Of a DNA stretch of 64,000 nt, positions 15,241-18,200 are shown piece after piece. This DNA is from Escherichia coli. GTDB lineage: Bacteria; Pseudomonadota; Gammaproteobacteria; Enterobacterales; Enterobacteriaceae. Made by a program: the position numbers. The stretch's first letter is position 1; each line of letters begins with the position of its first letter. The stretch lies in NCBI RefSeq assembly GCF_045037415.1, contig NZ_CP173438.1; one strand, given 5' to 3'.

Positions 15241-18200
15241 TTATAGCACAGTGGTGGTGACTTGACCACCGTGCGCATAGTGTCAGGCAGAGGTAAATTG
15301 CGGGATGTTATGCCATAACGGCCAGCTGAACGAGAAGCGGGCACCCCCCAGTTCGCTGGTGTCACAATTAACCGTACCGCCCATTGCCAGTGCTATAGAG
15401 TGGACAATGGCCAGCCCCAGCCCGCAGCCGCCGGTTGAGCGATCCCGGCTGGGATCGAGGCGAACAAAAGGTTCAAAGATATGTTCGCGGTTTTCTGGGG
15501 CAATCCCTGGGCCATCATCCTCAACAATTAATGTCGCTCTATTCCCCGACAGTAGCAGGCTGGTTTCAACCGTTGAGTGACAGTAGCGCAGGGCGTTATT
15601 GAGCAAATTATCCAGCACGCGCTCCATTAAGCGCATATCCAACGCAGCATAATGGCCTTGCGCGAGCGTTTTTATCCGTACCGTTTTATCGGGCGTTACT
15701 GCCTGAATATCTGCCAGATGCGTTGACAGCCACAACGGCAGGTCTGGTTCGCTAAGATGAAGCTCATTTTGTGGGCGATCGAGCCGGGCATAAGTCAGCA
15801 GCTCTTCAATTAAAGCTTCAAGTTGACTGATATCGCGATTCAACGCCTGGGATTCGGCGGCGCTCAGGTTATCGCTCATCTCCAGTCGATAACGCAGGCG
15901 CACTAACGGTGTTCGCAGTTCGTGAGCGATACCGTCAATAAGCTGTTTTTTGCTGGCAATCAAGGCGTTGATATTGTCCGCCATCTGGTTAAATGCGACG
16001 CCAAGTCGTTCAAAGCTCGAACCTTCATCAAAGTGGATACGCTCACTGAGATGCCCATCGCCAAATCGTTGCGCCGCTGCTTCCAGTTTTAACATATCCT
16101 GCCAGTGCGGACGCATCCAGATAAACACCGGAAAGGCGAGGGAAATGGCAATAAAAGCGATCAGGGCGATATCCAGCAATCGCATCTGATGGAGGTAATA
16201 AAGATAAGGAACAGGACCAACTGCCAGCACGTAGTGGCTGCGTGGGATACGTTGCAAAAAAGTGTACTGATCGTCCAGAGCGACAATTTCGCCGCCACGC
16301 AGCCGCTGAGTAAATATCATCAAGATGATATTTACTCAGCGGCTCGACACGCAGATCGAAAGAGAGATTTAAATCCATCTCTTTCAGCGTCTTACCCCAG
16401 TCGTGTGGGGGGATCTCACGCAATTCGCTGCGCATCAGATACAGCGAACTGTTCATCAAATCATCCAGCGACTGTTTGCCTGCGCGTTCGGCGGTAAATT
16501 TGTACACCAGCCCGACCAGCAGAGACATCACAAGGAAGCAGACAAACAATAACAGGTAAAACTGGATAAACAGTTTTTTCATCGCTTATTCCCACGCATG
16601 AGGCGCAAAAAGATAGCCTTTGTTACGCACGGTTTTAATACGATAAGGTTCTGCGGCGTTATCGAGCAGTTTTTTTCTTAACCGCGAAATAGCCACGTCC
16701 ACGCTACGATCCAGCCCGTCATAACTGACGCCGCGTAAATTTTTCAGCAATGCATCGCGGTCCATGATTTGCCCGGCATGGGTAGCTAATTCCCACAATA
16801 ATTCGAAATCAGCTGTCGAGAGCGAGATTTCAGTGTTAGCCAGGGAGACTACGCGGTTGATGGGATCGATGGTCAACGTGCCGAAATGCAGGGCTTTGTA
16901 GGGAGTCAGAGACGTTTCCTGAATACCTTTGGTCACTGTGGCTTGCTCATTCTGACGCAAATGCAAGCGTAAACGCGCTAACAAAACAGCAGGGGGCGTC
17001 GTTTTGAGAATATAGTCGCAGGCGCCCATTTCCAGTGCCAGGATGTGGTTCATATCGCTATCGAGAGAGGTTAGAAGAACAATCGGTCCGGACCACTTTG
17101 CGCGTAAATCACGACAAATGGTCATGCCGTCCTTGCCTGGTAGCATGATGTCGAGTAACACCAAATCCGGATTTTCTCGCAGAATAGTTTCTTCGGCCCG
17201 GTCGCCGCGCGGCTCTACGGTAACCTGCATATCATGTTTTGCCAGGTATGCGGCAATCAGTGCACCGACTTCCGCATCATCTTCCACAAATACGATAGTG
17301 TTCATAACATTCACGGTAGATATAAAAACGTCACAATACACCGCACTGTTTTTACTTACTATCAATCGTTTCTAAACAAGGTTTCATCAGGTATTCTACT
17401 GATGACTTGTTATGGAAGTGTTAAGGTAAAAAGATGGGGCTGGTAATCAAAGCCGCGCTCGGTGCGCTGGTAGTGCTGTTGATTGGTGTTTTAGCAAAAA
17501 CGAAAAATTATTATATCGCCGGGCTGATTCCACTTTTCCCGACCTTTGCGCTTATCGCGCATTATATTGTTGCCAGCGAACGCGGCATTGAAGCCTTACG
17601 CGCAACCATCATTTTTAGTATGTGGTCGATTATTCCCTATTTTGTTTACCTGGCGTCGCTATGGTATTTCACCGGAATGATGCGCTTGCCCGCTGCTTTT
17701 GTTGGCTCTGTTGCGTGCTGGGGAATAAGCGCATGGGTGTTGATTATATGCTGGATTAAGCTGCATTAACGCAGATGACGACCGCCATCAAGTGGGAGAC
17801 TGCGTCCGGTGACAAAGCAGCTGGTAAGTAAGTAATCGACCAGGTCGATCACTTCTTTCTCGCCAGGCGCGGTTTTCATCAGTGATTTATTCAGCGCCTG
17901 TTGTCGATATTCGGCATCATCATGTTCATTAAACAGGATCAGCGATGGCGCAATAGAATTCACTTTCACTTCCGGTGCCAGCTTGCGGGCAAACGAGCGG
18001 GTCATATTATCCAGTGCCGCTTTGCTTGCAGCATAGGCAATATGTTTGTCGCTACCGCGCTCCACCACATAATCGGTAAAGTGAATGATATCGCTGGCGG
18101 CGTGTCCGTGCCCACGCAGTAATCTTTCCAGAGCATGGTTGAGCAGGTATGGGGTATTAACGTGGATCTGCATCATGCAAGCCAGTACGTCGGTCAGTGG

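Follow-up and report, generated by a model that had tools for sequence, protein, structure and literature searches.

A Probable PhoP Box in the rstA Promoter of an Escherichia coli Genome Carrying a Frameshifted rstB

We analyzed a stretch of 64,000 nucleotides of the Escherichia coli contig NZ_CP173438.1 (the whole of which is referred to here as the window), in which a first-pass annotation had flagged a candidate PhoP site in the divergent region between rstA and ydgC. Our analysis indicates with high confidence that the rstA(B) promoter has its PhoP box at this site, a 17-mer at positions 17362..17378 on the minus strand. The assignment is thus correct but already published, and the box itself holds nothing new. 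Its second half-site departs from the PhoP consensus as a maintained property of this promoter, and downstream of the box, in this genome, the sensor kinase gene rstB carries a frameshift.

The gene order in the window is fumC-tus-rstB-rstA / ydgC-folM-ydgI, and at the flagged site the minus strand, which is the rstA strand, reads ...CCT-TGTTTA-GAAAC-GATTGA-TAGTAAG..., such that all three parts of the motif are present where they had been placed: half-site 1, TGTTTA, at 17378..17373, the spacer GAAAC at 17372..17368, and half-site 2, GATTGA, at 17367..17362 (all on the minus strand). The site therefore consists of two (T/G)GTTTA-like hexamers arranged as a direct repeat with a 5-nt gap, in direct orientation to rstA, where the first hexamer matches (T/G)GTTTA at 6/6 positions and the second at 4/6. 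Counted from the A of the rstA ATG (17305), the box extends from 73 nt to about 57 nt upstream, and the original estimate of about 75 nt is thus roughly right for its 5' edge. The rstA coding sequence itself (16586..17305, minus strand) is intact and encodes a response regulator of 239 aa, based on both the open reading frame and the RefSeq annotation of the identical gene; the ATG at 17305 is the RefSeq start of identical genes and does not vary among 25 aligned taxa. Differences between the window and strain SK1144 are confined to rstB, leaving rstA unaffected.

The primary paper mapping the PhoP control of rstA in E. coli is said to be Minagawa 2003, on the Mg2+ stimulon, which several sources cite. 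Comparison with the published rstA promoter, the check for which the first-pass annotation had called, shows that the published site coincides with the flagged one instead of mapping elsewhere. Specifically, the PhoP-site dataset of Harari 2010 (PMC2908699, Figure S2, supplementary file 17) contains the entry “rstA: TTGTTTAG---CGATTGAT E. Coli”, next to a Salmonella entry, “rstA: TCGTTTAG---AGATTTAT Salmonella”, and the E. coli half-sites TTGTTTAG and CGATTGAT match the window exactly, flanking bases included. We note that a literal full-text literature search for TGTTTAGAAACGATTGA retrieved no paper, and that the PMC2908699 supplement gives the site split into its half-sites. The resemblance to a PhoP direct repeat that had been remarked upon is thus that of the published E. 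coli rstA box, which is also the ortholog of an experimentally defined box in Salmonella.

In Salmonella, the rstA promoter has been DNase-footprinted with phosphorylated PhoP (PhoP-P), revealing just one, directly oriented box, TCGTTTAGAAAAGATTTAT (Zwir 2012, PMC3335776). The -10 hexamer TATGTT follows this box at a distance of 23 nt, with a -35 hexamer TGGAAG at 17-nt spacing (“architecture III”), 5 nt from the -10 hexamer to the +1 position, and a 21-nt leader; activation depends in vitro on the alpha-CTD of RNA polymerase, and inverting the 17-mer abolishes it (PMC3335776). Both the alpha-CTD requirement and the orientation dependence are results obtained on the Salmonella rstA promoter. 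The corresponding stretch of the window, TTGTTTAGAAACGATTGAT, is identical to Salmonella TCGTTTAGAAAAGATTTAT at 16/19 bases, and the two promoters share not only the orthologous gene and the position of the site, but also a single direct box, a distance of 23 nt to a TATNNT -10 hexamer preceded by GGTG, a weak -35 hexamer that adjoins the box, and a leader of 21–22 nt. They differ in both half-sites (TGTTTA in the window vs CGTTTA in Salmonella for half-site 1, and GATTGA vs GATTTA for half-site 2), as well as in the -10 hexamer, which is TATTGT in the window and TATGTT in Salmonella.

In the window, the -10 hexamer TATTGT lies at 17333..17338 (minus strand), exactly 23 nt 3' of the box and immediately preceded by the invariant GGTG. 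This is in agreement with PhoP boxes that stand in direct orientation at 11–12 or 21–23 nt from the -10 hexamer. By homology with Salmonella TGGAAG, we infer a weak -35-like hexamer, TAGTAA (17356..17361, minus strand; 3/6 matches to TTGACA), which adjoins the box and lies 17 nt from the -10 hexamer. Transcription would start at 17327 on the minus strand, a position again derived solely from homology to Salmonella, giving a leader of 22 nt and placing the box at -51..-35; this putative start is the 5' edge of a T-run (17327..17325) that is invariant in the 25-taxon alignment. A sigma-70 consensus scan of 17200..17500 found no promoter, which fits a promoter that depends on an activator, a case in which such a scan is uninformative. 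The same region yielded “terminator-like” scan matches, which we rejected as terminators, the region being divergent and intergenic.

The rstA box also has much in common with the architecture I promoters phoP, mgtA, slyB and yrbL, which likewise carry a single direct (T/G)GTTTA-N5-(T/G)GTTTA box at a sigma-70 promoter with a poor -35 hexamer. In architecture I, however, the box lies 11–12 nt from the -10 hexamer, taking the place of the -35 hexamer, whereas the rstA box, at 23 nt, is one helical turn further upstream, and at mgtA the alpha-CTD has been shown to be dispensable. A further, known difference is the non-consensus second half-site of the rstA box. Footprinted PhoP boxes with the second halves CATTGA, TATTGA or GATTCA do exist (PMC3335776).

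To score the site independently of rstA, we built a weight matrix of 19 columns from 25 activation-relevant PhoP boxes in 22 other Salmonella promoters (Table 1 of PMC3335776), with rstA excluded. With this matrix, the window site scores 16.75 bits, ranking first among the 127,964 positions on both strands of the window, on a par with the footprinted rstA box of Salmonella (16.64 bits) and above 20/25 of the leave-one-out training scores. The motif taken alone is nevertheless no more than suggestive of a PhoP box. The strict consensus (T/G)GTTTA-N5-(T/G)GTTTA with ≤2 mismatches gives 25 matches in the window vs 15.7 expected, and was dropped as a test on account of being unspecific, and 33/200 dinucleotide shuffles of the whole window hold at least one site as strong as the one at rstA. 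Both observations would fit a chance resemblance, in which AT-rich intergenic DNA happens to present one good TGTTTA with a poor partner, while PhoP acts on rstA from elsewhere or indirectly. What takes the site beyond chance is its position, orientation, spacing and conservation: the flagged site is not just any strong match but the top scorer of the window, and it stands in the correct place and orientation, where chance would supply only 1e-4 (genome composition) to 1e-3 (local AT-rich composition) sites of this strength over the ~110 upstream positions of rstA. Taking into account also that its exact 23-nt phasing is kept across many genera, that the Salmonella ortholog has been footprinted, and that the E. 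coli site is itself in a published dataset, a chance resemblance is next to impossible and can be regarded as effectively refuted already.

Conservation of the site was assessed both within E. coli and across the family. Of 5,426 complete E. coli genomes, 5,412 carry an identical copy of the 30-mer at 17351..17380, and the box is identical in the K-12 strain JM109, where the intergenic region differs only at 17345 and 17381, outside the box. Beyond E. coli, we compared the 80 closest rstA loci among species representatives of the Enterobacteriaceae, anchored on the conserved GTG-TAT of the -10 region. A box of at least 12 bits lies exactly 23 nt from the -10 anchor (GTG-TATNNT) in 41 of these 80 loci, each from its own species, and a weaker box in the same 23-nt register is present in another 15; in 14 the best box is 12 nt upstream of the anchor, and the remaining 10 lack the anchor. 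In the 25-taxon alignment, the conserved islands are the two half-sites, the GGTG-TATNNT block (the GTG-TAT of which is invariant), the T-run at the predicted +1 position, and the ATG, while the sequence of the 23-nt spacer between the box and the -10 hexamer varies freely. The box thus shows the phylogenetic footprint of purifying selection.

This comparison also bears on the second half-site, which had been described as degenerate. The description holds insofar as the hexamer is non-consensus at 2/6 positions, but there is no sign of weakness or decay, as it is conserved across genera. Among the 41 strong boxes, half-site 2 is GATTAA in 30, GATTGA in 6, GATTTA in 3, and GGTTAA and GGTTGA in 1 each, and in none of the 41 is it the consensus hexamer. 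Three of its bases (the G, the second T and the final A) do not vary among the 25 aligned taxa, where the invariant positions include T17375, G17367, T17364 and A17362, and GATTNA is better conserved across genera than half-site 1. As half-site 2 is never consensus and retains these invariant bases, the alignments argue that the “degenerate” GATTNA half-site is an ancestral, maintained property of the rstA promoter, and not the product of decay.

Conservation in a divergent intergenic region could in principle be due to either gene. In the 80 closest loci, ydgC, the product of which is a GlpM-family membrane protein, is next to rstA in 69, and divergent from it in all 69. The window carries a conserved block, TATTCT, at 17392..17397 on the plus strand, which is a probable -10 hexamer of the ydgC promoter and lies 13 nt from the PhoP box, such that the expected ydgC -35 hexamer (about 17369..17374) probably falls inside the box. 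In other genera, the -10-like block (TATGCT on the ydgC strand) keeps a constant distance of 7 nt to the box in 61/67 of the loci that carry ydgC, and it is missing in 2/3 of the loci without ydgC. On this basis, one could argue that the conserved sequence is mainly the -35 region of the divergent ydgC promoter, with the PhoP-like repeat being incidental. The pattern of conservation, however, fits two hexamers offset by 11 bp and not a TTGACA-like -35 hexamer (the sequence in question, TTTCTA, matches at just 3/6 positions), and two of the loci without ydgC (L024 and L082) retain both the box and the -10 hexamer at the 23-nt spacing, and the box therefore belongs to rstA. In addition, experiments in Salmonella in which the promoter was shortened and the box inverted have demonstrated a role in rstA activation (PMC3335776). 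We consequently consider a conserved ydgC promoter element with an incidental repeat to be very unlikely, and keep to a PhoP box of rstA.

A role as the PhoP box and a role as the ydgC -35 region are not mutually exclusive, and can coexist. Based on this overlap, one may speculate that the PhoP box serves the divergent ydgC promoter as well; we consider this rather improbable, and no link between ydgC and PhoP is reported in the searchable literature. If true, PhoP-P would occupy the -35 region of ydgC in reverse orientation, and could from there repress ydgC or otherwise couple it to Mg2+ and acid signaling.

Direct-repeat sites with a period of roughly 11 bp are common to the OmpR family of regulators, raising the question of whether a family member other than PhoP, for example RstA itself by autoregulation, binds the repeat instead. 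Against this, rstA is known to depend on phoP in E. coli, Shigella and Salmonella. A search of the whole window for the RstA box TACATNTNGTTACA with ≤2 mismatches found none near rstA, the sole match being at the asr promoter, and autoregulation by RstA at its own gene was rejected on these grounds. Binding by a different OmpR-family regulator in place of PhoP is thus extremely unlikely.

The claim that rstA is PhoP-activated is upheld by the E. coli dataset entry (PMC2908699) and the orthologous Salmonella box (PMC3335776), and a number of functional studies bear on the same point. In Shigella flexneri, a 220-bp rstAB fragment is shifted by PhoP-P, and rstA mRNA falls to 0.07 upon deletion of phoPQ (PMC5775216). 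Both primers of this fragment have exact matches in the window, at 17314..17334 and 17513..17533, and the fragment (17314..17533) spans the box; rstA is absent from the table of predicted PhoP motifs in the same paper, although the rstAB fragment was shifted (PMC5775216). In K-12, positive control of rstAB transcription by PhoQ-PhoP has been reported, and an rstAB plasmid no longer affects omrB once phoP is deleted (PMC13425233). Also in K-12, PhoQ activation leads to more RstA protein (PMC7083825), an rstA reporter tracks the dose of PhoP over a wide range (PMC13215669), and rstAB is up-regulated in mgrB mutants (PMC10746255). In Yersinia, rstA is reported not to be PhoP-controlled (Perez 2009). 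In the literature, PhoP binding is thus reported for the Shigella fragment and the Salmonella ortholog, and phoP- or low-Mg2+-dependent transcription of rstA for K-12 and Shigella.

Taken together, these data are consistent with the following sequence of events. Upon sensing low Mg2+, mild acid or cationic peptides, PhoQ would cause the phosphorylation of PhoP, and PhoP-P would then occupy the repeat TGTTTA-N5-GATTGA, between about -51 and -35, as a head-to-tail dimer, farther upstream by one helical turn than it does at phoP or mgtA. As the box adjoins the poor -35 hexamer TAGTAA, with the -10 hexamer TATTGT 23 nt away, bound PhoP may recruit RNA polymerase via the alpha-CTD, and rstAB transcription would proceed from about 22 nt before the rstA ATG on into rstB. 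The E. coli +1 and -35 positions in this scheme are derived by homology, and the alpha-CTD dependence is an extrapolation from the Salmonella data. The rstA box would thereby constitute the first link in the relay from PhoQP to RstBA.

With respect to the E. coli K-12 rstA promoter, there is no difference in the box; the difference lies downstream, where rstB is frameshifted in the window, unlike in K-12. The rstB sensor kinase gene (15283..16582, minus strand) carries a -2 frameshift at about 16306..16311, where the CCATGCAC of both SK1144 and JM109 is replaced by ACTCAG, a net loss of 2 bp. The frame stops after 179 aa, with the remaining kinase sequence in another frame, and the statement that rstB is inactive is borne out to this extent. 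Through the lesion, an inverted repeat of 17 bp at about 16303..16338 has become perfect: the imperfect repeat of the reference, GCTGAGTAAATATCATC-TT-GATGATATTTccatgcac, now reads as the palindrome GCTGAGTAAATATCATC-TT-GATGATATTTACTCAGC, in which the new second arm, GATGATATTTACTCAGC, is exactly complementary to the first arm, GCTGAGTAAATATCATC. The lesion thus bears the signature of a quasipalindrome template-switch mutation. The frameshift allele is found in 0/5,426 complete E. coli genomes (the best match, at 96.1%, being the intact allele), while the surrounding 14 kb are otherwise essentially identical to those of many clinical strains. As the allele is in none of these genomes and the sequence around it is near-identical to that of other strains, the lesion is either very recent or else a sequencing or amplification artifact.

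If the lesion is real, the data from K-12 are instructive as to its consequences. There, both stop-codon and phosphotransfer-defective rstB alleles render asr and omrB hyperactive at pH 7, in a manner dependent on D52, and asr remains high in rstB mutants at pH 5 (PMC13425233). This hyperactivation at pH 7 is attributed to the phosphatase activity of RstB at neutral pH and to the presence of other phosphodonors, for which EnvZ, CpxA and acetyl-phosphate have been suggested (PMC13425233). Thus, the proposal that, with rstB inactive, RstA could still be made but not be phosphorylated normally is literally true, but a loss of RstA activity is not what the hyperactivation of K-12 rstB-null strains would lead one to expect. 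Going by these data, PhoP-driven RstA is more likely to be overactive than inactive here.

Signals are documented to enter the PhoQP-to-RstBA relay at the rstA box, and this relay connects the sensing of Mg2+, acid and antimicrobial peptides to the control of asr, csgD and ompF, and to trimethoprim adaptation. Confirming the box adds no new element to this known relay, although it does illustrate that a real non-consensus operator could be located from sequence alone. The strain-specific rstB context is mildly more interesting than the box itself: with rstB frameshifted, PhoP-driven RstA would escape both the phosphatase control exerted by RstB and the SamT feedback, which acts through RstB, and the RstA regulon in this isolate may thus be hyperactive, not off.

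The PhoP box upstream of rstA does not appear to lie at the same distance from the −10 element throughout the Enterobacteriaceae. In 14 of the rstA loci compared (L032, L034, L037, L039, L045, L047, L050, L053, L055, L058, L060, L063, L068 and L070), over the region approximately 45–75 nt upstream of rstA (which begins at locus position 1201), the loci of Enterobacter, Lelliottia, Leclercia and Huaxiibacter have a degenerate first half-site (e.g., TAATTT), while GATTAA is kept and is followed by TGGAA-GGTTAA, giving a box 12 nt, rather than 23 nt, from the −10 element. These 12-nt boxes have modest scores of about 10 bits against our PhoP weight matrix. 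From sequence comparison, the box in these genera seems to have moved by one half-site, or one helical turn, from architecture III (the 23-nt spacing of Salmonella rstA) to architecture I (the 11–12 nt spacing of phoP and mgtA).

At the conserved position, no recognizable PhoP box was found in the loci of Klebsiella grimontii, K. oxytoca and K. michiganensis (L026, L027 and L029), in those of Kluyvera (L028, L031, L042 and L072), or in L048 and L079; in all of these except L072, the conserved GTG-TATNNT −10 anchor and the upstream ydgC gene are missing as well. These loci may have undergone promoter replacement or rewiring, similar to Yersinia, where loss of the PhoP control of rstA has been reported.

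Within the window, the next-best matches to the PhoP matrix after the rstA box are CGTTTTACCTTTTATTTAT (404..422, minus strand, 16.2 bits), which lies between the open reading frames at 5..340 and 460..1488 and points away from the downstream plus-strand frame, TTTTTAATGATATGTTTAT (14669..14687, plus strand, 15.0 bits), which lies within tus, and CCGTTTAACATTCATTGAG (54210..54228, plus strand, 14.1 bits). In 64 kb of sequence, chance would be expected to yield scores at this level.

On the ydgC side, a conserved block (17383..17397) is separated from the PhoP box by 7 nt in the upstream direction. Most genera have CAGCATAACGGAA here, Escherichia has TAGAATACCTGAT at the corresponding position, and the block is missing in 2/3 loci lacking ydgC. 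Its opposite strand contains TATGCT/TATTCT, which is probably the ydgC −10 element. Immediately upstream of the box there is also a perfect 7-bp inverted repeat, TCATCAG-N8-CTGATGA (17384..17405), which is specific to Escherichia, being partly retained in E. albertii and missing in other genera, and the 8-nt loop of which, GTATTCTA, holds this probable −10. The repeat was terminator-like in our scan, but its location between divergent genes speaks against a terminator; it could instead serve as an operator overlying the ydgC −10.

If translation began at the in-frame GTG at 17313, RstA would be longer (MNVMNTIV...), a form found in older annotations. This GTG is not conserved beyond Escherichia, but all 25 aligned taxa share the ATG at 17305, and the alignment thereby supports the 239-aa RefSeq start.

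Within rstB, in the stretch 16303..16338 (minus strand), ACTCAG stands in place of CCATGCAC, a net change of −2 bp that shifts the frame and gives rise to an inverted repeat with 17 bp of perfect pairing, GCTGAGTAAATATCATC-TT-GATGATATTTACTCAGC. By its sequence signature, this frameshift is a quasipalindrome "correction". None of 5,426 complete E. coli genomes carries the allele. Apart from the lesion, many strains are essentially identical to the window over the 14-kb flank; either a template switch produced the mutation very recently, or the lesion is an artifact at a hairpin-forming site.

The downstream end of the PhoQP–RstBA relay lies in the same window (27604..28205, minus strand), where asr occupies 27780..28115 and the sequence just upstream of it, TACATATCGTTACA (28192..28205), matches the RstA box consensus exactly. 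The 27-aa open reading frame at 27604..27687 (MVGRYRFEFILIILILCALIAARFYLS) is SamT/YdgU, a peptide described only recently, which exerts feedback on RstB. Because rstB is broken, the SamT feedback loop would be left without its target.
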